Both the position numbers and the translations under genes were made by a program. DNA of 64,000 nucleotides, from the sequence record ON470615.2. One strand, 5' to 3'. Numbering within the stretch: position 1 is the first letter of the stretch; each line of letters begins with the position of its first letter. Below the pieces are notes generated by a model. That model was not told the origin of the DNA and ran no database searches. It saw only the letters and a list, made by a program, of their open reading frames with translations. Shown here piece after piece: positions 26,073 to 55,621 of this stretch. The stretch comes from Escherichia phage vB_EcoM-673R5.

Positions 26073-27630
26073 TTCTGCACCTCGCAGCCTTCAATTTCAG
26101 CCACAATCGCATCAATATCTTTGCGCAACTGGTCGATTTTGCTGACCGTGGTTTTCAGCTCAGCATTCAGCTCAGCGATATCGATAATTTCGCGAGTATC
26201 TTTCGCTTCCACATAGCTGCTCACCGACAGGTTATAGTCATTCGCGACAACAGTCTCAAACGCAACAGATTTCGCCAGATGAGCAACATCTTCCTTGCTG
26301 GCAAATACCTGCATAATTTTTTCGATATGGGCATCGGTCAGGATGTTGTTGTTAGTCTCTTTTTTGAACAGTTCGCTGGCGTCAATAAACTGAACTTTGG
26401 TATCCGTTTTATGTTTAGACAGAACCAGAATGTTTACGGCAATGGTGGTGCCAAAGAACAGGTTCGGAGCCAGTGAAATCACGGTTTCGACATAGTTATT
26501 ATCGACCAGATACTGACGGATTTTCTGCTCCGCGCCGCCACGGTAAAAAATGCCTGGGAAGCAGACAATCGCAGCGCGACCTTTGGCCGAAAGATAGTTC
26601 AGCGCATGTAATACAAACGCAAAGTCAGCTTTGGATTTGGGGGCCAGAACGCCAGCCGGGGCAAAACGTTCATCGTTAATCAGCGTCGGGTCATCGCTGC
26701 CAATCCATTTCACCGAATACGGCGGGTTAGAAACGATGGCATCAAACGGTTTTTCATCTCTGAAGTGCGGCTCAGTCAGTGTATTACCCAGCTTGATATC
26801 AAACTTGTCGTAGTTGATGTTGTGCAAAAACATGTTCATACGCGCCAGGTTATAGGTCGTATGGTTGATTTCCTGACCAAAAAAACCTTCTTCGATGATA
26901 TGGTCATCAAACTGTTTTTTAGCCTGCAACAACAGCGAACCGGAGCCTGCTGCCGGGTCGTAGATTTTGTTAACGTGGGTCTGCCCGTGCATAGCCAGTT
27001 GTGCAATCAGCTTAGAGACGTGCTGCGGTGTAAAGAACTCGCCGCCTGACTTACCGGCATTCGCCGCATAGTTAGAAATCAGGAACTCATAGGCGTCACC
27101 GAACAGGTCAATCTGATGTTCGTGGAAGTCACCAAGTTTTAACCCTTCAACCCCTTTCAGAACCGCAGCCAGGCGGGCATTTTTATCCTTAACGGTATTC
27201 CCAGGCGGTTACTGGTTGTATCGAAATCAGCAAACAAACCTTTGATGTCAGCTTCTGAAGGATAACCGTAAGCAGAACTTTCGATAGCAACGAAGATGCT
27301 GTTTAAATCCGCATTCAGTCTGTCATTGGTATTTGCTTTCGCCGCTACGTTGCAGAAAAGCTGACTGGGGTAGATGAAGTAACCTTTGGTTTTGATGGCA
27401 TCGTCTTTAATGTCATCAGTAATTACGCTGTCATCCAGTTTCGCATAACAGATACTGTCATCACCGGCTTCAATATAGCTGGAAAAATTTTCGCTGATAA
27501 AACGGTAAAAAAGCGCGCCCAAAACGTACTGCTTAAAATCCCATCCATCGACTGAACCCCTGACATCGTTAGCAATTTGCCAGATCTGGCGATGAAGCTC
27601 TGCACGTTGTTGAATACTTGTCATTTTCAT
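26069..27630 (-). CDS. hsdM: type I R-M methyltransferase subunit; frameshifts near 27000-27190
   Basis: N-terminus [25 protein letters not shown]; C-terminal fragment with AdoMet motifs ([15 protein letters not shown]). ATGA overlap with hsdS. Confidence 0.85.
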
Positions 27631-27805: not shown

Positions 27806-28027
27806 ATGCAATCCATTAACTTCCGTACCGCGCGCGGCAACCTTTCTGAAGTGCTCAACAATGTTGAGGCCGGGGAAGAGGTTGAAATCACCCGCAGAGG
27901 CCGTGAGCCAGCAGTAATTGTCAGCAAGGCTACTTTCGAAGCCTACAAAAAGCGGCGCTGGATGCTGAATTTGCATCCCTGTTTGACACCCTGGACTCCA
28001 CCAACAAGGAACTGGTTAACCGATAAT
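27806..28027 (+). CDS. phd: Phd antitoxin; one frameshift near 27946
   Basis: [49 protein letters not shown], then [24 protein letters not shown] in the adjacent frame. Junction at tacaaaaagcgg. Confidence 0.85.
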
Positions 28028-28406
28028 GAGGCATATATCACCGGAAGAACTTATTGCGCTTCATGATGCGAATATAAGCCGCTACGGCGGCCTGCCGGGA
28101 ATGTCAGATCCGGGTAGGGCAGAGGCCATTATCGGGAGAGTTCAGGCCAGAGTTGCCTACGAAGAGATCACCGACCTTTTCGAAGTCTCCGCCACCTACC
28201 TGGTGGCTACAGCGAGAGGGCATATATTCAATGATGCCAATAAGCGTACCGCGCTAAACAGTGCGCTGCTATTTCTACGCCGTAACGGGGTGCAGGTATT
28301 TGATTCACCAGAACTGGCAGACCTTACCGTAGGGGCTGCGACCGGAGAGATATCTGTATCTTCTGTCGCCGACACGTTACGTAGATTGTATGGTTCCGCG
28401 GAGTAG
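28026..28406 (+). CDS. doc: Doc toxin (Fic-fold kinase)
   Basis: 126 aa intact ([25 protein letters not shown]...[12 protein letters not shown]). ATG overlaps the phd stop. Confidence 0.9.
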
Positions 28407-36659: not shown

Positions 36660-37691
36660 ATGTCCAATTTACTGACCGTACACCAAAATTTGCCTGCATT
36701 ACCGGTCGATGCAACGAGTGATGAGGTTCGCAAGAACCTGATGGACATGTTCAGGGATCGCCAGGCGTTTTCTGAGCATACCTGGAAAATGCTTCTGTCC
36801 GTTTGCCGGTCGTGGGCGGCATGGTGCAAGTTGAATAACCGGAAATGGTTTCCCGCAGAACCTGAAGATGTTCGCGATTATCTTCTATATCTTCAGGCGC
36901 GCGGTCTGGCAGTAAAAACTATCCAGCAACATTTGGGCCAGCTAAACATGCTTCATCGTCGGTCCGGGCTGCCACGACCAAGTGACAGTAATGCTGTTTC
37001 ACTGGTCATGCGACGGATCCGAAAAGAAAACGTTGATGCCGGTGAACGTGCAAAACAGGCACTGGCGTTCGAACGCACTGATTTCGACCAGGTTCGTTCA
37101 CTCATGGAAAATAGCGATCGCTGCCAGGATATACGTAATCTGGCATTTCTGGGGATTGCTTATAACACCCTATTACGTATAGCCGAAATTGCCAGGATCA
37201 GGGTTAAAGATATCTCACGTACTGACGGTGGGAGAATGTTAATCCATATTGGCAGAACGAAAACGCTGGTTAGCACCGCAGGTGTAGAGAAGGCACTTAG
37301 CCTGGGGGTAACTAAACTGGTCGAGCGATGGATTTCTGTCTCTGGTGTGGCTGATGATCCGAATAACTACTTGTTTTGCCGTGTCAGAAAAAATGGTGTT
37401 GCCGCGCCATCTGCCACCAGCCAGCTATCAACTCGCGCCCTGGAAGGGATTTTTGAAGCAACTCATCGATTGATTTACGGCGCTAAGGATGACTCTGGTC
37501 AGAGATACCTGGCCTGGTCTGGACACAGTGCCCGTGTCGGAGCCGCGCGAGATATGGCCCGCGCCGGAGTTTCAATACCGGAGATCATGCAAGCTGGTGG
37601 CTGGACCAACGTAAATATTGTCATGAACTATATCCGTAACCTGGATAGTGAAACGGGGGCAATGGTGCGCCTGCTGGAAGATGGCGATTAG
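36660..37691 (+). CDS. cre: Cre tyrosine recombinase
   Basis: 343 aa intact, MSNLLTVHQNLPALPVDATSDEVRKNLMDMFRDRQAFSEHTWKMLLSVCRSWAAWCKLNNRKWFPAEPEDVRDYLLYLQARGLAVKTIQQHLGQLNMLHRRSGLPRPSDSNAV...MVRLLEDGD. Confidence 0.97.
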   Translation: MSNLLTVHQNLPALPVDATSDEVRKNLMDMFRDRQAFSEHTWKMLLSVCRSWAAWCKLNNRKWFPAEPEDVRDYLLYLQARGLAVKTIQQHLGQLNMLHRRSGLPRPSDSNAVSLVMRRIRKENVDAGERAKQALAFERTDFDQVRSLMENSDRCQDIRNLAFLGIAYNTLLRIAEIARIRVKDISRTDGGRMLIHIGRTKTLVSTAGVEKALSLGVTKLVERWISVSGVADDPNNYLFCRVRKNGVAAPSATSQLSTRALEGIFEATHRLIYGAKDDSGQRYLAWSGHSARVGAARDMARAGVSIPEIMQAGGWTNVNIVMNYIRNLDSETGAMVRLLEDGD

Positions 37692-38296: not shown

Positions 38297-38852
38297 ATGA
38301 AAACAATCGAACAAAAACTTGAACAGCGCCGCGAGTGGCAGAAGGCTGCCAGAGAACGAGCGATCGCTCGGCAACGGGAAAAGTTGGCTGACCCCGCTTG
38401 GCGAGAATCGCAATATCAGAAAATGCGGGATTCTATCGACCGCCGTATCGCTAAACAGAAAGAGCGCCCACCAGCCAGCAAAACGCGGAAAAGCGCGGTA
38501 AAAATAAAATCTCGTGGCTTGAAGGGAGAACACCAACGGCGGAGGAACGGCGCATCGCCAATGCTCTTGGCGCTCTCCCTGCATTGCCTGCTACATGCAT
38601 GGAGTAATATCTGAAGAGGTATCTCTGCACCATATCTCGGTCGTACCGCGCCGGGTTGTCACAAAAAGCAATTGCCCCTTTGTAGATGGCACCACCAGCA
38701 TGCAGCACCGGCTGAAGTAAGAGAAAAATACCCTGGCTGGTCCCTGTTCATGCCGATGGTGTGGTTGGAGGCAAGAAAGAATTCACCTTGCTGAACAAGT
38801 CAGAGATGGAGTTGCTGGCTGACGCCTATGAGATGGCAAACATCATGCACTA
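38297..38852 (+). CDS. ref: Ref recombination-enhancement HNH endonuclease; frameshifts from about 38525
   Basis: N-terminus MKTIEQKLEQRREWQKAARERAIARQREKLADPAWRESQYQKMRDSIDRRIAKQKERPPASK; other frames give VSLHHIS and GVVGGKKEFTLLNKSEMELLADAYEMANIMH. Confidence 0.75.
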
Positions 38853-39041
38853 ATAAATATATTATTTTTAATCTGAAATAATTGACAACTGACAAGTGAC
38901 TTCAGTCAGAATCATCACATGCCCGGTACGGATGGATCCCTTTTCAAATATTCCATGGACGGCACAGTCTGAGTACCGGGCGCTACCTTCAGTTGTATTG
39001 CTAAGCCGCCGCTGGTGGCTTTTCTTTTTGTAGGGGGCGCT

Positions 39042-39293
39042 ATGGATAAGAAAATATGCGTTGTGTCGATGAGCGTCGGCAAACCGGCGTCAATGACTGC
39101 TGCATGGATCAATAACGAGCTGATAATGGCTGAGCGGACCAGCTACCCTGAACGCCGCCGCGATATGGAACTCCAGCTGCTGCGCGAATTGCGAGAAAAA
39201 GAGGAAAAGGGTTTTATCGTGCTGGTGGAAGAGGAAAACAGCTTTATTACTGGTCGAGTTGGCCAGCGTGTAAGGTTGCGCGATCCTTCATGA
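39042..39293 (+). CDS. hypothetical protein between ref and the toxSAS gene
   Basis: ATG 39042 inside track ORF 39015-39293. Confidence 0.35.
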   Translation: MDKKICVVSMSVGKPASMTAAWINNELIMAERTSYPERRRDMELQLLRELREKEEKGFIVLVEEENSFITGRVGQRVRLRDPS

Positions 39294-39658
39294 ACGGCAG
39301 GCCGGTACTAATTGAGGCAATGCAGATTTATAAGGAGCTGGAACGCCAGAAAGCAATCAAGTTACCGCGCAAGGAATCCGGCAAATACATTCTCCACCAA
39401 AGCATCTTCGATTCCGAACACGATAAAAAAGGCGATGAATTTTTCAACATCAACTGGAGCGAAATAACGACAGAGCATGTTCTGACGTTACTATGTTGCT
39501 TTGCGACGGAATACAACAACGTTGCCAGCGCCGACTACATCAGGGCAATGGCTGGAGAAGTTGAGGCCCGCCAAGAACCATCGTTACTAAGTCCACTGAT
39601 TAACATAATTCTGGGCACCCAGATACTGGAACAAAAAAAGTGCCGAAAGGGGTATTAA
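39290..39658 (+). CDS. hypothetical protein, 122 aa
   Basis: ATGA overlap with the preceding gene. Confidence 0.35.
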   Translation: MNGRPVLIEAMQIYKELERQKAIKLPRKESGKYILHQSIFDSEHDKKGDEFFNINWSEITTEHVLTLLCCFATEYNNVASADYIRAMAGEVEARQEPSLLSPLINIILGTQILEQKKCRKGY

Positions 39659-39774
39659 CAGGCAAGCATAATTATTTTTAACAATTACATACAGTAATTT
39701 TGTGGTTACATTCTCCATTGATTTTCTAACCGCTTTATCATTAGATGTAACAGCATGTAAATCATTTAAAATGG

Positions 39775-40883
39775 ATGAAAGCAATGGGGAATGAAGTTTA
39801 TCAAAGTCAAAAATGCAAGTTGAAATATTCAAAATCTCAAATTGATAGGGCTGCTCAATTGATAAGGCACGGGTGTAGTGACGAAGAAAGGCAGCAATCT
39901 ATTGAAATGATACAAAATTTCCGTGAGCTGCATCTTTATCCATTAATGCTCATGAAAAATCATTTAGCAAGAGCAGCTGCTAAGGTTGACAAGGACAAAA
40001 AGATTCTCGTTGCAAGAAGACTTAAGCGACTTTCTACCATAATAGATAAACTAGAGCGTCCTAGTCTTGATGGAGGCAGAACTAGCAATGCAATTAAATT
40101 AACACGGATGCAGGACGTTGGCGGATGTAGGGCCATTGTCAGAAACTTAGACCAGTTGATACAGCTAAAGGAACGTCTTTTAAAAAGCAAATCTGTTCAT
40201 AGGATTGTTAAAGAGTATGATTATCTTACTCCCAAAGACAGCGGCTATAGTGGAATCCACCTTGCATACAGTTGCTTCGATCAGAAGAGGATCAATATCC
40301 GTGGCGAAAAACAAAGATTGAGATACAGTTAAGAACTCAATTGCAGCATGCTTGGGCTACCAGCCTTGAAATAATTGATACCCTTGAAGGTATCAAGCTG
40401 AAAACTTCAAGTGAAGGGCATCCAGAATGGAGACGATTTTTCTATCTAGCCGGATGTCTTGTAGCGCACGACGAAAAAGCCTGCACTCTTGATGAGCTAG
40501 TTGTATCTCAGTATGAAGGCGAGCTTAAAGAGCTGGAACGGACTTTATCTGTACGGAGGAAACTAAGCACATACACCATCGCCTTAAATTTAACTTCTGA
40601 CGCGAATTTGATTAAGAAGTTGCCAAAAAATCATAAGGGGCATTACTTAGTAACAATGAGAAATGCAGAAAACAAGCCCAATACAAAAAACAAAAAAATG
40701 TTCCTAGTGTCTGTTCGCGCATTTAAAACAAAAGAAGCAGATGAAGCCCTTGAGGCCTTAAATAAAGACGATTCTAATCCTAATGTATTGATATCTGTTC
40801 TCGTTGCTACAGATAACATTAAGTCACTAAAAAAGCCTACCCCAACTATTTTGGCTCAACAAACCAGTTTACAAAATTCTTAG
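39775..40883 (+). CDS. fused RelA/SpoT-synthetase toxin (toxSAS) with C-terminal extension, CapRel-like; one frameshift in the A-run at 40305-40315
   Basis: Synthetase motifs RRLKRLSTIIDKL, DVGGCRAIV, GYSGIHLAY, EIQLRTQLQHAWA; about 140 aa C-terminal extension; no separate antitoxin ORF. AT-rich. Confidence 0.7.
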
Positions 40884-40917
40884 ATAAGCATCTTCGTAAC
40901 GAAGGATAGTTGCTTAA

Positions 40918-40943
40918 TTTTGCCCGGTAATTCCGGGCAAAAT
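40918..40943. terminator. bidirectional terminator hairpin
   Basis: ttttgcccgg-taat-tccgggcaaaa. Confidence 0.55.
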
Positions 40944-40945
40944 TG

Positions 40946-41194
40946 TCAATCTGCATTCAGGAGCAATGCGTTATCTATGATGATCTGCTCCCATTCTTCG
41001 AATGCCCGATCGCGGACGCCCTGGGGAACACTGTTAGTTTTGAAATCGACCACCGTCCGCCATTTCCCGTCCGGGCGGTACATGCGCAGAGCTTTACTTC
41101 CCCCTTCCCTGCGCACCTCAACGTTATGCTTATCAGCAAACTCTTGTAATGCTCGTAGCGTCCCATGCTTTACTGTGTAGTATCGCTTTTTCAA
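40946..41194 (-). CDS. 82-aa basic protein, possibly the C1 co-repressor Lxc/Bof
   Basis: Intact ORF at the position where P1 has lxc after the R-M slot. Assignment rests on size and position only. Confidence 0.3.
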   Translation of the reverse strand: MKKRYYTVKHGTLRALQEFADKHNVEVRREGGSKALRMYRPDGKWRTVVDFKTNSVPQGVRDRAFEEWEQIIIDNALLLNAD

Positions 41195-41631
41195 GTTTTC
41201 TCTCCAGCCTGTGCCAAGGCTTCAACTTCCAAATCGTAAGACTCAAACTCATAGTCCTGGTCGTCAACTTCTTCAGGCACTGGCAGTAAATGCCAGGCTG
41301 AGTATATCTGACCATTATCAAAACGCTCCTGGCTGTAGAGCGTCGCGGCTATGAGTGTTAGCGCCGGGCGGTCATAACGGTAAATTTTGCGAACGTCACG
41401 GTCAACGAGACGACCGAAATTACCATAACCGCGCTCCAGTAATAATTTTTTAATTTCCGGCCAGTATGGGCCATAGCTGCGGTACAGGCGGGGATTTTTC
41501 AGTAATCGCCCGCGTAGCCCTGACAGGAAGAAATCAACGTATTCGTCTTCTGTCTTTCCTAACAATGCCGTACGCAGTACCGCCTCAAGATATGTTTTAT
41601 TCGGTTTTATTGTATCAGATAGTGTGGCCAT
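41191..41631 (-). CDS. hypothetical protein, 146 aa, upstream of the 82-aa gene
   Basis: Intact ORF; ATGA overlap with the downstream gene. Confidence 0.35.
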   Translation of the reverse strand: MATLSDTIKPNKTYLEAVLRTALLGKTEDEYVDFFLSGLRGRLLKNPRLYRSYGPYWPEIKKLLLERGYGNFGRLVDRDVRKIYRYDRPALTLIAATLYSQERFDNGQIYSAWHLLPVPEEVDDQDYEFESYDLEVEALAQAGEKT

Positions 41632-41664
41632 ATTATGCGACGCCCGGCGAACCGGGCGCTCCTG

Positions 41665-44600
41665 TTATGCGTATTGTTGGATGACGGCCAGAACGTCCGC
41701 CACGTTGTGTTTTGTCTCGATAATCCACCAGTTACCCGGGAAATCGCTGTTCTTCGCCTTCGCTGGCAGCCAGCGAGCGCCGAATTTCGCCTTGATTGCG
41801 TCTTTCGCACGGAAAAGAACGCCTTTCATGCCTGAGGCTTCCTGAAGCCCAAATACCTCGCCAGCGGCGAATTTTGGTGCGTACATCATCTTCAGGTCGG
41901 CGGTGGATACGCGATAATTCAGACCAAGAGACTGAGCTATGCTGGTGGCATCACCCTGTATTGATGATAACTCTTCTTGTTTCTCGTTTCTGGCGGCAAT
42001 TTCTTCCTCCGTGATGTTGCCAAGGGCCAGGTTTATCCGATCAGCGTCGGCCTGTTTCTCTTCATCGGTGCGTCCGGCAAGAACCGTGTTAACTCTCTGC
42101 AATATCTCCACATGATTCTTGCGCATGCTGAGCAATTCCGGCGTAACCTCGTTAAGATCCACCAGCCCAAGGATGGCAAGGTCGGAAAACATTGATACCA
42201 GGTTGTAGGTCATGCGATAGCTGAGTTGACCATAGGCTGATGGCAACTTCACCGCATCCATTTGATAGGCATCCATAAATTTAGAGCCGTCGTTTACGAC
42301 ATCCGCAATTGCCGGTGTGATTTTTCCTGTGGTGGCGGCCTCCCTGATTGCTGTTACCCACGATTGAGTCAGCGCGGCGACTGCATGATTCAGATTGGCT
42401 TTCCGTTCTGCTGCAATGTGCGCACTTGCTGCGTCCATTGCCTGCTTGATCTCGTCTTTATTGCTGTAAATGCCAATGGTGCCAAACTGTGCTGTGGTGA
42501 TCTCATAATCTGACGCCCGGACTCATGGGTACCGAAAATGGCATTGGTGACCTCAAGTTCAGAATCCCCGTTACGAGTAGCCCCTGGCTTGTTTTCTCCG
42601 GCATTTTTGCGATCGCATCCGCTATTTTCTCCTGAATTGCTTCAGGGGATAGCGTATCTCCGTATGACGCGATTACATCGCCATAATTGGAGCCAAACAA
42701 TTCAACCAGGAATGTTTCTGCCGAACGGATCTGGCGGTTATTCCCTTCCGACATCATACCAAGCACCCATTTTGCAATTGACGACTTCAGCGCGCCGTCA
42801 CGGCGATCCGGGTAAACCGCATGCTTCAGTGGGTCCGTATAGGTGCCAACAAAATCAATGCTATAGCCTGACTCTGTAGTCTGAACGCCGTATGAGTCAG
42901 TGATTTTGATCATGCCGCGCTGCTGGAAACGGTAGAAATCGTCACAGGAAATGATGTCGTTAATCCCGGCGATGGAGACGCCACCACTGATTTTCTGCAT
43001 AACAGCATCTTCATCGGGAGTTACATCCACCTGTTTATCCAGCGTCTTCACATCCCAGTTACCCGATTTGGTGCCTTTGAAGGTAAAGATGATCTCCACG
43101 TCTGCGCGCTGGCTGTCGAAGTCCAGCGACTTAATGCGAACGATATCACCGGCACAATCATAGTATTGGCCTACACGCCATGAGCGATCGCCGATAACAA
43201 GGAACTCATTCGCATGGTTAACCAGATCAGGATCAACATCCAGAATGCCTTTATTTATTGCATCCTCCACCAGCGGGCGCAGGCGTTTGATATCCGTCGC
43301 GGCCTTCTGAGTACGGTTCAATAATTTCTCATAGCGGGAGATGGCCTGAGAGATATTAGCCTTGCGCTGAATGGCGCTTTTCAACGACGCGCGATACTGT
43401 GCTAACAACATACGGTCTGTGTGATGGACGCTACCCCAGCGGGCTTTCCAGTCTGCGTTATCAGCTGCTTTGGCCATTACCGCCTGTTTGAATTTGGCGA
43501 CGTCGGCGGTGGTCTTTTCAAGTTCCGCTTTGCTTCGCTCCAATTCAGCGGTAAGTACCTCCACATCCTCACCAGCTGCGTGCTGCGCCTTGATGTAGTT
43601 CTGAAGGTCGATAGTAGCCTGTTCTTTCTGGCGAGCGCGTTTCGCAGCTTTCGCCTTATCCATTTGAACCTGCATCATTACCAGACGTTCGCCATCATCC
43701 TTAGCGGTATACATCTGCATTTCGATCATATCGTTGGCGTCGGCGTTCTCCATTTCTGACTTATCTGAACGGAGGATATCGGAGATCCAGCCTGCTTTAC
43801 GCTTCAGCGTCTTCAGTCGGTATTCATCGAAAGAACCCTTGCCGCAGTAGTAATGAACGCGAACGCTTGCACGGTTGGAGCCAACTCGAGCACCGCGACC
43901 GTTACGCTGTGCGATACTGGCTGGTGTCCATGGCAACGTCAGATGATGGATGTCAGTCGTTCCTCGATGCAGGTTGATACCCACCTCTGCCTTTTTGTTG
44001 CAGATGATGATCGGAGTCCGGCCCTCCTGGAAGTCGGCTGCAATCTTTTCCAGACCGCCCAACGACATTTCATTTTGCTGCGCGATATAGGCGTCATACA
44101 GAGCCATTTGCTCGTTGTATTTCGCTATCTGTGCATCTGTTGGTTCATCCGGTAACTCTTTCGGCGGTTTAACCGCTTTCAGTTTCTTACCGGTTTTACC
44201 TGCCTCGGCAACCGTCTGAGCATTCAGGATCCCCACCTTTGAAGGTTCAAGGTTAAGAGCATTGCAGATAATGCGCTTGAGCTTCTGGTGCTGCGTTTTT
44301 CGTCCGTGAAGATGATTTGCTTACCTTCCGGGAAAAACGCCTTCAGCGTGGCGATCAGCTTCGCGTATTTGGGTGTAACGGGGTGAGTTACGGTCTGTTC
44401 GTCAATGCCAAACTTGGCCAGGCGATTATTCACTTCCTGCTCAAATGCTTCCGGTACCTGCAACTGAATAAACTCGCCCTTATCTATCAGGGAGTATTGC
44501 GATTGCTGCGTGATCGAATCATCACTGTCGTCGTCTTCGCTGGTGGCTTGTTTAGGCAAACTGTCCGCCAGCTGCTGCACCGCATCGGCGTACTCCGGCA

Positions 44601-47600
44601 GGAAACGATAGGTGATCCTGCGATAGTACAGGTCCATGTCAGTACATACGCGGTCCATATCCCTGATTATTGAGAAGATCGGACGGGCTTTCTCGTGCTC
44701 AATCACGCCGTCTTCATTGACCGAGGTCGTTACGCCATTGTTGGCTTTGGCTGCCGCTTCCGCCTGCTGACGCAATTCTTCATACGCCGCCAGTTGTTCT
44801 TCCGTAAGTGGTGCATCCTGCTGGTGTTCGTCCAGTTCCGGGATCTCCACGGTATCCTTAACGTCTTCCGCCGTTTTAAGCGTTGTCCAGCGATGGAATA
44901 TGCCGCGCAGCGCATCAAGGTTTTCAAAGCCCACCAGCGCCATTTTTTCTTCAACTTCACCGCTGATTTTCTGTACCGTTTCCAGCCTGGTCTTGCCGAA
45001 GAATTTAACGAAGTCATCAGGACCGTAGATCCCCATCTTCTGCCAGTATTCCTTCGGCAGCACATGAGAAAGCATGTTGTATGCATCGATCGGGGTGTTA
45101 ACGACTGGCGTTGCAGTCAGGAGAACCGGTCCGCGCCCACCATTCTTTTTCATCAGGTACGCGTTTTTAATTGCCATATCCCGCGCCGATTGCGCCACCG
45201 CGCTGGTGGGCAGATAGGCCAGTTGTGACGCTTCGCGACCATTTTTATAGCTATTGCGGTAGTTGTGACCTTCGTCAGCGATCACACTATCGAAGCCCAT
45301 ATCCTCAAAGTACGGATACTTCTCTGCTTTTTCGGTGCCGGTATCTGAATACTCCGACAATACCCGGCGACGCGCGGCCTCTTTGCGGTGGGAGTCGGAG
45401 TCCATTGCGCTGGCTACGCGCCCGGCGGCAACGAAGTCATAAAGCATATCCTGTGCATGCTCATCTACGGTGTCATCACGTAGCGGAATGCGGGCGTATT
45501 GTTCTTTGGTAAACACGACTGCACGGTAATTTGAGTGCGGGATCGCGTTCATCCGCGCCGTGATAGTGGCTTCATCTGCCAGTTTTAGGGCATCGCGCAT
45601 AACTGGAGTGCCATCAGTACCAAGAACAGGTTTACCGTTCTCATCGAGCACCGGCACCTGGCGAATCTGATCGCCATCCATCAGCACATCAAGACCGACG
45701 AACAGGTAGTTACTGAATGCCTCTTCACTCAGGAATTCTTTTGCTTCGTAATACCAGTTTTCCAGCACTGATTTAGGCACTACATACGCAGTACGGGTGG
45801 AGCGACCGTTCTCATAGTTGAACGCCTCAAGCGCCAGCGCGGTCGTAGTTTTACCCAGCCCGGTGCCGAAGCCCAGGATGCCGCGCCCATCTTCGGACAG
45901 TCGGCGCACTTCGCTATTCTGGTAATCAAATGGCTGGCGCTTACCGCTTAATCCCTTCAACCCAAGCGGATCGCCAGAGTGTTCATACGGGATATTGCTA
46001 TTGAACACATCGTTGTATTTGGCAACCAGTTCATCGTAGCGATCGTGCGTCTTGATCCACTTATTGAACTGGTCCTCAAGCAGTGCCATCTGCTCGCGGT
46101 AGCCGTTCGCCGTCGCGCTATCTTTGCCACCGATACGCGCACCATTGAGATACTTTTCCAGCTGTGCCGGGAACCCGGTCGCGTTTTCACCTGATTTACG
46201 GTCCCACTCGTAGCGGATCTCGCCTGTTTCTTTATCCTTGCGCTGGACGACACCGTATCGGTGCCCGACGAACAGGCCATCACCACCGTGATAGGTGTCA
46301 GAAACCATTTCGTCGCCTTCCAGCTGCACTGACTGCACATAGCGCAGATCCGGATAGCCGTTTTCCTGCAAAAACTCCAGAATGACGGAGCGGTCGAACC
46401 AACGGCTATTGAGCTTAAAGCGGATATTCTCTGCTGGCGTCTTGATGCGCTTCTCTTCGATCGCTGCCAGCTGATTAAGGACGTTGTTCTTTACTGGACC
46501 GTCGGGGAGTGTGGCAAGGAATTCCTGTTTTGGAGCCACTATCTCGTTAATGTCGCCGCTGGTGGCGCGGGCGAACGGAACAATCCCGCCATACGGAGAA
46601 ACCGCAATACCAGGAGTGCTGGCCAATAAATTAAGCAACTCTTCATCACTGGCTGGCAGTTCGCCGGTAAACGCAAGGCGGAAATCATCGAGCTGGATTG
46701 GATCGCGGGTAAGATCGCTATAGAGATAACGCAGGGTGTCCTGATAGCTGGTGGAGTCATAACTGGCGCTGGAATCATGCGTAACCAGCTTTCCTGTTAG
46801 CTCGTCAGAAATAGTGCCATCCAGCTTAATTGCACCACGGAAAGCAAACCAGGCGCGCGCACCGCTTCCCGATAATTTAGCTATCGGACCGCGACCGGGG
46901 TTACCAAAACGGTCAATCTCTGCCTGCAAACGGGACACCAGAGAAAGGCGCTGCTGTTCGATTTGTTCAGCACTATGCCCGGCGGCCTTCATATCCTGAT
47001 ATTCAATTAACATCCGGCCAATCATCGCCCCACGATACAAGCGTTCACGGTATTTTTCAGGCTGGCTGTTAATCCAGTCCACCAGCTGCACCATATCGTC
47101 GCTGATTGATGTGGTGTACTTATCGCGGACATTTGCCATCTGGGTAAATGTCATACCGAGACGGCCTTCTGTTGTAGTCAGGTTACGCTGAAGAGCCTCC
47201 CAGCTATCCGCGCCATAACTGGCAGCATCAATCTTAAGCTCCTTACCAGCATCAGCTTCAATCCAGCGACCACCAGCATATTTTTGCCATACGCCATTAA
47301 TCAGGCGCATTTCCCCTTCATCAACAACATCTGCGGTCGGTGACGGTTCAGCCATATCGAGCAAAGACCAGTCGATACGACTTTCGAAACGATGAATCAG
47401 CTTCGCTTTAAGAGCCTGGTTATCAATCTGACCGTCGGCACGAACCTCAATACGCCCCTGGAAGCCCTTTTCCTGGGTGCCATGAACAAACCGGCGGCCA
47501 TCCTTTTCAAACCACTTGCCAGAAATAAACGTTGGCCAAAGCACATTTGCCGATTCAAGAGTGCTTTCATCCACCAGGGGATTTTCTCAGCCATCTCTGC

Positions 47601-48428
47601 CGGATGTTTGCGCATCAGCACCACATCAACGACTGTACTGGTCCCGTTTGCGTCAAAAGTACCGGTAGGCAAGCGGTGAGCGCCAAGAAATTCAGCTTTA
47701 CGGGATAAGCGCAGGCGTAACCGCTTCATGTTTGAACCTGAAACAATGGACGGCGGCACAATCACGCACATGAATCCGCCTGGCTTTATCTTGTCCAGCA
47801 TGCGGAGCATGAAGTAAGAACCCATGTCCGTTTCTTCTGCGTAAGGCTTATCGATGTTGCGTGTGTTATCACGACCGCCGAACGGAACGTTACCCACAAC
47901 ATGGTCGAATGAATCGTTAGGCGTGCTTATAGCCAGCTGTTCGAACGGGGAAATCTGTACGCTGTCTTCCGGGTGTAACAACTGGTTTATACGACCGGAA
48001 ACACTGCTGATCTCAGTCGCGGTCATCACCGTACCAACCGGTTTTGTCTCATTAAAAACGCCGGTTCCCGCCGATGGTTCCAGAGTGTTACCTACGTCCG
48101 CGCCGTAGAGCTTCATGATCTCCCAGACACCTTCAGCGATCGGCTTTGGTGTGTAATATTCGGAGACGGACCCGCCAATGCCGCCTTCACCGGTGTACCC
48201 AGCCAGGATCTGGCGCTGTTCATCTGTCAGTGTCGCGCCGTCCACCAGCGAATTAAGCAAATCTATCGCCTTCTGATTCGCCTCCCGGCGCAGTCGGTCA
48301 TAGCTTTTGCCTTCCACCTTTTCCACGCCGTATTTAATCGGCGCTCGGTGAGATGTTATTGCCCTAATGTATTTCAATATTTCGCTGACACTTGAACAGC
48401 GAAACACCCCCATAAATAGCTTGTTCAT
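41665..48428 (-). CDS. darB: giant anti-restriction protein with N6-adenine methyltransferase and SF2 helicase domains; several frameshifts
   Basis: Four co-linear fragments (343 + 1116 + 577 + 257 aa) total about 2250 codons. MTase-like DHVVGNVPFGG; helicase LGFGTGLGKTTTALA, VIADEGHNYRNS. Confidence 0.8.
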
Positions 48429-50225: not shown

Positions 50226-51480
50226 ACGGCAAACATTCCCAATTCACAGAGTCCGACCTAAACCACATGAAGCGGCTTAGGAATTACAGACTCTCCAAGG
50301 GCTAACACTGCCAGCCCGGCAGCTTTTATATTACGGGCCGCGTTAATATCACGATCATGCTCTGCGCCACATTCCGGGCAGTGCCATTTACGAATATTAA
50401 GAGGCATTTTTTGCATGGTGAAGCCGCAACTGCTGCAACGTTTGGAAGAAGGGAAATACTGGTCGATAGCGACAATGCTACGTCCACCCCATTCTCCTTT
50501 GTACTGGAGTTGGCGTACAAGTTCGCTCCAGCCTGCGTCAGCTATTGCTTTAGACAGCTTCGGGTTACGGATCATGTTTTTCACTTTAAGGGATTCGACG
50601 CAAACAACTTGGTTTTCGTTAATCAGTTTGCGGGACAACTTATGCAGGTTATCCATCCGACAATCGACTATTCTCGCGTGGAGGCGGGCAACCTTTAAAC
50701 GTGCTTTGGCGCGGTTCTTTGAGCCTTTTTGTTTCTTGCTCAATCTGCGCTGTAACACTGCTAATCGCTTCGCGTATTTAGCGTTGTGTCGAGGATTGCC
50801 AGTTTTAAAACCGGTATCGGTGACGAACAAATCTTTTAAACCAATATCAATGCCGACCGTGGAAACGGTGATCGGCAGTGATACAGGCTCAAACTCGCAG
50901 AGACAGGATACAAAATATCGTCCGGCAGCATCCCCTGGTGATAGTGACAGTGGATGGAGCAGACGGCAACGGACGGCTCCAGCGAACATCTAACGGCTCT
51001 TTGCTCTTTGCCATGTACAGCTTGCCGTCACGGTATTTAAATGCGCTGGCAGTTAGTTCTGCGGCCTGTTTATGCCGCTTGCTCTTAAAAACTGGGTATG
51101 CAGCACGCCCGGCGAAAAAGTTAGCAAAAGCCGTTTGTTGGTGGCGCAGAGACTGCTGGAGGGGGACGCAGGAAACGTCATTCAGCCAAGCGAATTCTGG
51201 TTCTTTTTCAGTGCCGTTAATTTGGCGCTGGCTTGTGCATAGCCGACCCTCTCATGGCGTGCGTAGTACGCATCGGTGCGCCAGCGAAGGAGGCTGTTAT
51301 AGACAAAACGCACACACCCAAAAGTCCGGGCTAATAGCTCGGTTTGTTCGGGAGTTGGATAGAATCGATATTTATAGGCACGCTTCATGTTCTATATAAT
51401 ACATTGAAACTAATGAGTATATAAATGAATACACGGACGAAAATGTTATCAAAGCCAATATACCAACAGACATTAGGTAA
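50226..51480 (-). mobile_element. IS200/IS605-family TnpB-only element in the prt-pro intergenic region
   Basis: tnpB fills nearly the whole prt-pro gap with no tnpA. Element ends not resolved. Confidence 0.6.
50258..51388 (-). CDS. tnpB: TnpB (OrfB) RNA-guided nuclease-type transposase accessory protein; frameshifts
   Basis: N-terminus MKRAYKYRFYPTPEQTELLARTFGCVRFVYNS; RuvC-like VGIDIGLKD and CVESLKVKNM; zinc finger CSSCG...CPECGAEHDRDINAARNI. Confidence 0.85.
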
Positions 51481-54267: not shown

Positions 54268-55621
54268 ATGACACACTGCAAAGAAAATACTTGGTATGAG
54301 CGTCAAGGGTACAATACCACCCGCCCGAATGAGATAAGGTCGGAGTATGAACGTGATCTTTCCCGGTTAATCCACTCTTCCGCTTTTAGGAGATTACAAT
54401 CGAAGACGCAGGTGTTGGGATTGGGCGAAAGCGATTTCTACCGTACGCGGCTAACTCACTCTATGGAAGTAGCGCAAATTGGCGGCGGTATCTTGTCTCA
54501 GTTGTCTAAGCGCGATACAGATGAGGGGGTAAATTCTTACCTGACCCAAGCCTGATGCAGGCTATCTGCCTTGCTCATGATATAGGACATCCCCCTTCGG
54601 TCATGGTGGTGAGGTCGCACTAAACTACTGCATGAGATCCTATGGCGGCTTTGAAGGTAACGGGCAGACACTGCGTATACTCTCCAAACTGGATAAGTAC
54701 ACCGAAACCAATGGGCTGGATCCCACCCGTAGACTTATTTTAGGCGTACTGAAATATCCAGCAAGCTATTCAGAGGTCGTCAATGAGAGGGCTTACAGCC
54801 AGTTACAGCCAAGAAGCAATGAGTGGTTGTTTAAATCATCCGAATTTAAGCCCCCGAAATGTTACCTGGACTCTGAGGAGAACACTGTTAGATTCGCACT
54901 CCAACCTTTTGATAGTGATGATGTTAAGTTATTCAAAACGGTAAAAACTACCGCGTTGAATAAGCACAAGGAAACAATATATAAAGCACTGGATACAACG
55001 ATTATGGACTTGGCTGATGAGATATCCTACTCACTCCATGATCTTGAAGACGCAATTTCTCTGAAGATGATCGACAAAAAAATGTGGGAGGAGCACTTCG
55101 AGGACAAATCCCATTTATTTGCAGCTTGCCAATGCGACTCGTTTAATCTAAAAGCCGATGATGTAGCTGAAAAACTGTTCGGCGAAAGTTATCTACGCAA
55201 GGAGTGCATAGGGACACTTGTTCATCTGATGATCACTAGCGTTAAGCTTGAAGTGCAGAACTCTGATTTCAAAAGTAAAATTTTACGCTATAAAGTGGCA
55301 CTTCCTGCCGCGGTAGAAGAGTTACGTAAAGCCATTTTTGAGCTGGTTAGGAACAAAGTTATTCAGCACGAAAACGTCCAACTATTAGAGTTCAAAGGTC
55401 AGAAACTGATTGTGGAACTATTCAATGTACTGGCAAATGACCCAATACGTTTTCTCCCGACAGAAACTCGAAAGAAATATAATCAAGAGGAAGCAAAAGG
55501 TGATGATAAAAAAATGCGTGTCATTTGCGACTATGTTTCAGGCATGACAGATGATTACGCTACTCGACTGTATGAGAAAATATTTGTACCGAGAAAAGGC
55601 TCTATTTTTGATAGACTCTGA
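54268..55621 (+). CDS. HD-domain dGTP triphosphohydrolase-like protein; two frameshifts near 54550-54600
   Basis: [12 protein letters not shown] and LAHDIGHPP[F]GHGGE; the second is restored by one T in cccccttcgg. C-terminal [17 protein letters not shown]-rich. Confidence 0.7.

Follow-up and report, generated by a model that had tools for sequence, protein, structure and literature searches.

A predicted CapRel-type fused toxSAS gene, sister allele of CapRelSJ46, in the mat/lxc slot of a P1-like phage-plasmid

The 64,000-nucleotide stretch of Escherichia phage vB_EcoM-673R5 analysed here (record ON470615.2, henceforth the window) is that of a P1-like phage-plasmid, and it very probably carries a CapRel, a one-protein fused toxin-antitoxin defence system that is intact in nature and is written here with two homopolymer sequencing errors. 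Judged from its sequence, the gene is a fused CapRel-type toxSAS and a sister allele of the prototype CapRelSJ46, the J46_0058 product of Salmonella phage SJ46 (AMR59976.1; PDB 7ZTB and 9ERV; Zhang et al., Nature 2022 and 2024). A preliminary description of this DNA had already called the gene a CapRel-type fused toxSAS, a call now backed by 74% identity to CapRelSJ46 and by the retention of every functionally tested residue. It had also proposed the gene as the unusual system of the window, which does not hold: the allele is a sister of the prototype, sits in the genomic context from which the prototype itself comes, and is already common in databases. System and context are both already known, and the find is correct but ordinary.

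Identity and domain organization of the gene

The gene runs on the + strand from an ATG at 39784 to a TAG at 40907-40909 and, once its two frameshifts are repaired, encodes a 375-aa RelA/SpoT-type protein (Table 1). The repaired protein gave an unbroken alignment over residues 1-371 to PDB 7ZTB (E = 4.6e-185), the open-state structure of CapRelSJ46 (PMC11578894), and matched PDB 9ERV over the same residues (E = 2.4e-184). By BLASTP it shares 74% identity and 87% positives with CapRelSJ46 over 371 aa, with one single-residue gap; against a protein of known crystal structure, this much full-length identity is enough to fix fold and family. When CapRelSJ46 was used as a tblastn query against the window as written, the match came back as three collinear pieces in three frames, at 39784-40320 (E = 9e-90), 40284-40856 (E = 2e-81) and 40829-40894 (E = 6e-7), and collinear pieces with such E-values put the match far above chance. 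Each of these pieces is identical to WP_000526244.1, the middle one at 96% with out-of-frame residues past the second break. The RelA/SpoT synthetase core had been recognised beforehand from four motifs (RRLKRLSTIIDKL, DVGGCRAIV, GYSGIHLAY and EIQLRTQLQHAWA), all of which are present in the + strand translation, and a profile search agrees: the RelA_SpoT core was the one Pfam match (PF04607, E = 3e-12, aa 79-193). PADLOC placed the repaired protein in the candidate family PDC-S33 (E = 8e-86).

The N-terminal part of the protein is predicted to form a toxSYNTH domain in which the G-loop tyrosine and the arginines that coordinate ATP are kept, and a putative antitoxin and sensor, the C-terminal pseudo-zinc-finger domain (pseudo-ZFD), is fused to it in the same polypeptide. 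The fusion had been described earlier with a C-terminal domain of about 140 aa; the fusion itself stands, but the antitoxin region, as delimited by experiment in CapRelSJ46, measures about 100 aa (residues 273-373). All 12 residues that were mutated in CapRelSJ46 (PMC9712102) are kept in the intact allele, namely, in CapRelSJ46 numbering, A77, R79, R116, Y155, L280, L307, V338, L339, A341, A351, Y352 and Y355. In CapRelSJ46, A77, R79 and R116 belong to the ATP site and docking surface; Y155 lies in the G-loop and is needed for defence; L280 and L307 are required for capsid sensing; V338, L339, A341 and A351 form the interface; and Y352 and Y355 make up the YXXY plug (PMC9712102). The YXXY motif and the six docking-interface residues (A77, R116, V338, L339, A341 and A351) are thereby all kept in the intact allele. 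As far as an alignment can test it, membership of the CapRel family holds for every feature.

The two proteins share their architecture end to end, at 373 aa for CapRelSJ46 and 375 aa here, together with all tested catalytic, ATP-site, interface and YXXY residues. By region, identity to CapRelSJ46 is 79% over aa 1-200 and 77% over aa 1-269, 62% in the pseudo-ZFD (270-340) and 73% in the C-terminal anchor (341-373). The sensor domain differs at 27 of its 71 positions, mostly around the beta6-beta7 loop, where identity is lowest (45% over aa 301-320) and where the allele described here has a one-residue insertion; helix alpha9 is mostly kept (D273, N275, L276 and K278).

Table 1. Coordinates of the CapRel-family gene, its predicted functional elements and its neighbours in the window.
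Feature	Position	Strand	Basis or remark
mat (maturation control), left flank	39042..39681	+	intact reference CDS by blastn: 2 gaps, 0 mismatches
102-nt cassette-specific upstream spacer	39682..39783	+	about 60% alignment to the CapRelSJ46 upstream spacer
CapRel-family gene (predicted)	39784..40909	+	allele WP_000526244.1; 375 codons plus stop when intact
Predicted toxin (toxSYNTH) region, aa 1-272	39784..40598	+	Pfam match and residue mapping; limits and roles from PMC9712102
R79, adenine-coordinating by homology	40018-40020	+	alignment to CapRelSJ46
R116, adenine-coordinating by homology	40129-40131	+	alignment to CapRelSJ46
Y155, G-loop by homology	40246-40248	+	alignment to CapRelSJ46
First frameshift site, codon K168	40285..40286	+	AA here, AAA in intact copies; plasmid alignments
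Pseudo-ZFD, about aa 270-341	40590-40805	+	homology to 7ZTB
Predicted antitoxin/sensor region, aa 273-375	40599..40906	+	full-length alignment to 7ZTB
Second frameshift site, codons K350-K351	40829..40834	+	A6 here, A7 in intact copies
YPNY (YXXY) motif of the C-terminal anchor, Y353-P-N-Y356	40838-40849	+	alignment to CapRelSJ46
Perfect 12-bp inverted repeat, 5-nt loop	40916..40944	.	repeat search; AATTTTGCCCGG / CCGGGCAAAATT
lxc (modulator of C1), right flank, intact	40946..41194	-	100% to reference; P1 and SJ46 annotation
ulx, conserved backbone gene	41191..41631	-	reference comparison
darB (N-6 DNA methylase/helicase, anti-restriction)	41665..48428	-	4 homopolymer deletions in the window

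Proposed mechanism and trigger

Based on homology to CapRelSJ46, the pseudo-ZFD would in the uninfected cell be folded back onto the N-terminal toxSYNTH domain, with the YXXY motif sitting between R79 and R116, so that the ATP site and adenine coordination would be blocked. Upon infection, a newly made phage protein would bind the pseudo-ZFD and the anchors and stabilise the open state; the open enzyme would then use ATP to pyrophosphorylate tRNAs at their 3' CCA end, whereupon translation would halt and the infection would abort. Carried in the variable mat/lxc slot of a P1-like prophage, the gene would shield the lysogen, and hence the prophage, from other phages. Several of these steps have counterparts in the prototype, for which tRNA pyrophosphorylation has been demonstrated and for which the toxin domain alone is toxic and the C-terminal domain neutralises it (PMC9712102). 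Activation by direct binding of a phage protein, together with abortive infection, has been shown for CapRelSJ46 and CapRelEbc (PMC9712102, PMC11578894, PMC13423816). By analogy, enzymatic activity, an autoinhibition switch and a defence phenotype would be expected of the allele described here.

Other toxSAS systems fit the same outline to differing degrees. CapRelEbc of Enterobacter chengduensis and CapRelKp of Klebsiella pneumoniae are also fused and built on the same domain plan, the catalytic tyrosine being Y153 in CapRelEbc and Y155 here; both show that a changed sensor domain directs the system at other phages or triggers (PMC9712102, PMC13423816). The two-gene toxSAS systems PhRel/ATphRel of mycophage Phrann and FaRel2/ATfaRel2 pyrophosphorylate the tRNA CCA end, the toxSYNTH chemistry predicted here too, and are likewise described as prophage-borne superinfection defences (PMC9712102). 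In these systems, however, the antitoxin is a separate gene, whereas here it is fused, without a neighbouring antitoxin ORF.

By analogy with CapRelSJ46 a capsid protein may be the trigger, but with 27 of the 71 sensor positions changed, neither trigger nor phage range is transferable from the prototype. There is a real, if somewhat less than even, chance that this is a functional CapRel whose natural trigger is not the major capsid protein but another phage protein or a complex of phage and host proteins. CapRelSJ46 itself uses the same domain to sense Gp54 of Bas11 as well, a small non-capsid protein (PMC11578894), and CapRelEbc senses Gp0.4 of T7 in complex with FtsZ (PMC13423816). CapRelSJ46 and CapRelEbc, which block different phages, are 70% identical overall and 47% identical in their C-terminal parts (PMC9712102); the figures for this allele and CapRelSJ46, 74% overall, 62% in the pseudo-ZFD and 45% over aa 301-320, point the same way. 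Against a non-capsid trigger, the two leucines on which recognition of the SECphi27 capsid protein depends, L280 and L307, are kept, and so is most of helix alpha9, and with these elements retained some overlap with the triggers of CapRelSJ46 is still plausible.

The two frameshifts

As written, the window cannot encode the protein, the gene being broken twice and hence read in three frames. At the first site, CAGAAAGAGG of the intact copies reads CAGAAGAGG in the window, and past the second shift the A-YPNY (YXXY) motif and the C-terminal helix are no longer read in frame; blastn of the window copy against an intact CapRel gene returned 2 gaps and 0 mismatches. The preliminary description had the ORF split by one missing A. 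A missing A is indeed the nature of the change, but it occurs at two sites, and the A-run at 40300-40320, where the error had been sought, is identical to that of the intact copies.

Comparison of 39600-41000 with otherwise identical plasmids (e.g. NZ_CP019054.1) revealed exactly three missing A bases and no other difference: one in the A-run 39633-39639 in mat, one at 40285-40286 and one in the A-run 40829-40834. The mat gene is itself broken, by deletions near 39284 (C3 to C2) and in its A-run (A8 to A7). On a larger scale, alignment of window positions 27806-64000 to NZ_CP103764.1 counts 44 single-base deletions against 5 insertions and 5 substitutions; the deletions, nearly all of which shorten a homopolymer of 2-8 bases, recur at about 1.2 per kb over at least 36 kb. 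Gene by gene, the gaps relative to the intact reference number 4 in c1, 4 in ref, 2 in mat, 2 in the CapRel gene, 4 in darB, 2 in the portal-like gene, 2 in tnpB, 1 in lyz, 2 in the dGTPase gene, 6 in hsdR, 1 in hsdM and 1 in phd.

The comparison with intact relatives makes it almost certain that the frameshifts are assembly errors of the long-read type. We read them as artefacts because the pattern of homopolymer deletions is window-wide, because natural divergence gives no nine-to-one excess of homopolymer deletions over substitutions, and because no P1-type prophage could survive with its C1 repressor gene so disrupted. That both frameshifts are real, and that the gene is either a decaying pseudogene or a phase-variable defence gene switched by slippage, is by comparison highly improbable. 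Both deletions do stand in the window sequence as given, and one sits in a tract of seven A, where slippage is conceivable in principle; the first site, however, is just an A3 run and thus a poor slippage tract, the same type of change recurs throughout the compared 36 kb and leaves c1 (4 indels), ref, mat, darB, hsdR and the dGTPase gene broken as well, a P1-type prophage could not be maintained without C1, and an intact 1,404-bp version is carried by every top-ranked match listed, both in PLSDB and among complete E. coli genomes. The apparent disruption of CapRel in this window is not to be taken as biology, and any frameshift or pseudogene called in the window is best regarded as a probable assembly error.

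The mat/lxc slot and its CapRel alleles

The window has the gene order of a P1-like phage-plasmid, with cre (36660-37691), a c8-like gene, ref, mat and CapRel followed by lxc, ulx and darB on the opposite strand. Between mat and lxc, a 1.26-kb cassette (39682-40945) houses the CapRel gene; its GC content is 0.38-0.41 against about 0.50 in the flanks, in agreement with the AT-rich insert noted at the outset. The interval first outlined for it, 39660-40945, does enclose the gene, and it takes in the last 22 nt of mat, the 102-nt spacer and the terminal hairpin as well. The preliminary description was also right that no antitoxin ORF adjoins the gene: a search for a separate antitoxin gene beside CapRel found none, the neighbours being mat and lxc and otherwise short unannotated ORFs on both strands. 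Minus-strand and alternative-frame ORFs within CapRel were considered as genes or as a hidden antitoxin and set aside, being at most 81 aa long and unannotated in every reference. An Rfam scan of 39000-41700 returned only a chance match to GP20-b, which at 19 bits (E = 0.7) falls short of the gathering score of 36, and hence no RNA element.

Upstream of the gene, the 102-nt spacer does not align to the empty slot of RCS47. The native promoter and ribosome-binding site presumably lie in this spacer; a consensus promoter scan of 39500-41250 called no promoter there. At the other end, the 12-bp hairpin lies between the convergent CapRel and lxc genes, abuts the lxc stop and marks the right end of the cassette. 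It may act as a terminator; a terminator scan of 39500-41250 did not call it, and no T-run stands behind it. Every other slot filler ends in a GC-rich hairpin of its own, before the conserved lxc end.

The contents of the slot differ among P1-like genomes (positions are those of the compared loci). P1 carries the EcoPI res and mod genes with IS5 between mat and lxc (3469-9749), as the earlier assignment of the insert to the type III res-mod slot of P1 had it; in RCS47 the slot is empty, with 39 bp only (3468-3506); in JL22 (2947-4000) it holds a gene for a 316-aa PIN_12-domain protein with a weak match to PADLOC PDC-S34; and in SJ46 (4737-6007) it holds CapRelSJ46, in the same order as in the window, mat, CapRel and then lxc on the opposite strand. 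The CapRelSJ46 gene and the one described here are thus alike in residing on a P1-like phage-plasmid, in the mat/lxc slot, each within an AT-rich cassette of its own; their upstream spacers can be aligned. The EcoPI type III res-mod shares with them the slot and the role of a prophage-encoded defence of the lysogen, but it acts by an unrelated mechanism, DNA cleavage and methylation, and occupies about 6 kb with two genes and an IS5 insertion. The mat/lxc junction of P1-like genomes is a variable swap site for defence cargo, with a type III restriction-modification system, either of two CapRel alleles, a PIN-domain protein or nothing in it.

Housekeeping small alarmone synthetases are the other family with which the protein could be compared. 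RelQ, RelP, YjbM and YwaC (PDB 5DEC, 6EWZ and 5F2V) share its RelA_SpoT nucleotidyltransferase core (aa 75-195), but resemble it only remotely (E about 1e-8), lack a sensor domain and produce (p)ppGpp instead of modifying tRNA; the YjbM/RelQ type is a single domain of about 200-250 aa, whereas the protein here has 375 aa with the extra sensor domain. It is scarcely credible that the gene encodes an ordinary enzyme of this kind, making (p)ppGpp or (pp)pApp for stress signalling, and not a tRNA-modifying toxin: generic database names and weak matches to the RelQ, RelP and YjbM structures (E 2e-8 to 1e-4) speak for it, but the CapRelSJ46 match is about 180 orders of magnitude stronger and spans the C-terminal sensor that small alarmone synthetases lack, the NCBIfam YjbM small-alarmone-synthetase model NF053588 scores 35.5 bits and does not reach its cut-off of 320, CapRelSJ46 pyrophosphorylates tRNA (PMC9712102), and the prophage slot is otherwise filled by a restriction-modification system or a PIN-domain protein.

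Several further genes in the window belong to defence or mobile-element families. An anti-phage dGTPase gene (54268-55621, +) follows ssb and is a second known defence gene on the element; the PADLOC dGTPase model recognises the intact reference copy (E = 1.7e-148), and two homopolymer deletions, near 54524 and 54590, break the copy in the window. A type I restriction-modification operon (21584-27624, -) consists of hsdR (21584-24694), hsdS (24816-26072) and hsdM (26069-27624) and adjoins phd/doc (27806-28406), with 6 indels in hsdR and 1 in hsdM relative to the reference. The portal-like gene and pro (head processing protease) are separated by an inserted gene for TnpB, of the RNA-guided endonuclease family and IS200/IS605 type, at 50258-51388 (-). 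In NZ_CP019054.1, which carries the same CapRel allele, a module of IS26, aph(3')-Ia and aph(6)-Id lies about 1.7 kb upstream of mat (positions 1-2713 of the compared locus) and replaces the backbone upstream of about window position 38715: resistance cargo has landed beside the defence slot.

With a cut-off of 80% coverage of the 1.4-kb query, the region was recovered from 49 plasmids in PLSDB and from 76 of the 5,426 complete E. coli genomes searched. The exact protein WP_000526244.1 is found on at least 1,000 public contigs, labelled no more specifically than 'GTP pyrophosphokinase' or 'RelA/SpoT domain-containing protein', and a search of a paper library by that accession found no mention of it. 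A 2025 preprint has reported CapRel or dGTPase systems as common in E. coli P1-like elements, from DefenseFinder runs on P1/D6 phage-plasmids (10.1101/2025.09.12.675607).

Within PLSDB, CapRel falls into two discrete classes, with 52 records at least 95% identical to the allele described here and 22 at 74%, of the SJ46 type; this allele is thus the commoner of the two, and no intermediates between the classes occur among 72,556 plasmids. At the DNA level the two alleles are 68% identical across the gene (5186-6313 and 4849-5970 of the compared loci), whereas the flanks are nearly the same as in SJ46 (mat 94%, lxc 97%, ulx 99.5%). Nei-Gojobori comparison of the alleles gave synonymous differences at or beyond saturation (pS 0.71-1.0), at which the dN/dS ratio is uninformative and provides no test of positive selection on the sensor. 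Gene DNA at 68% identity with saturated synonymous sites, set between flanks at 94-99.5%, argues that the alleles are old and that the cassettes were exchanged rather than having diverged in place; relative to CapRelSJ46, this is an old, separate allele swapped into the slot and not a recent variant. The two-class pattern fits cassette replacement, and possibly a balanced polymorphism.

We regard as evenly poised the wider proposition that P1-like phage-plasmids hold two anciently diverged CapRel alleles as interchangeable cassettes in one slot, the commoner of which responds to another trigger or set of phages than CapRelSJ46. If this is true, nature would have supplied a matched pair of alleles from which the re-targeting of the pseudo-ZFD sensor could be mapped. 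The finding is of value mainly for annotation, in that a generically named gene on more than 1,000 public contigs can be recognised as a probable CapRel defence gene; more modestly, the allele is a natural variant with which the evolution of trigger specificity could be studied.
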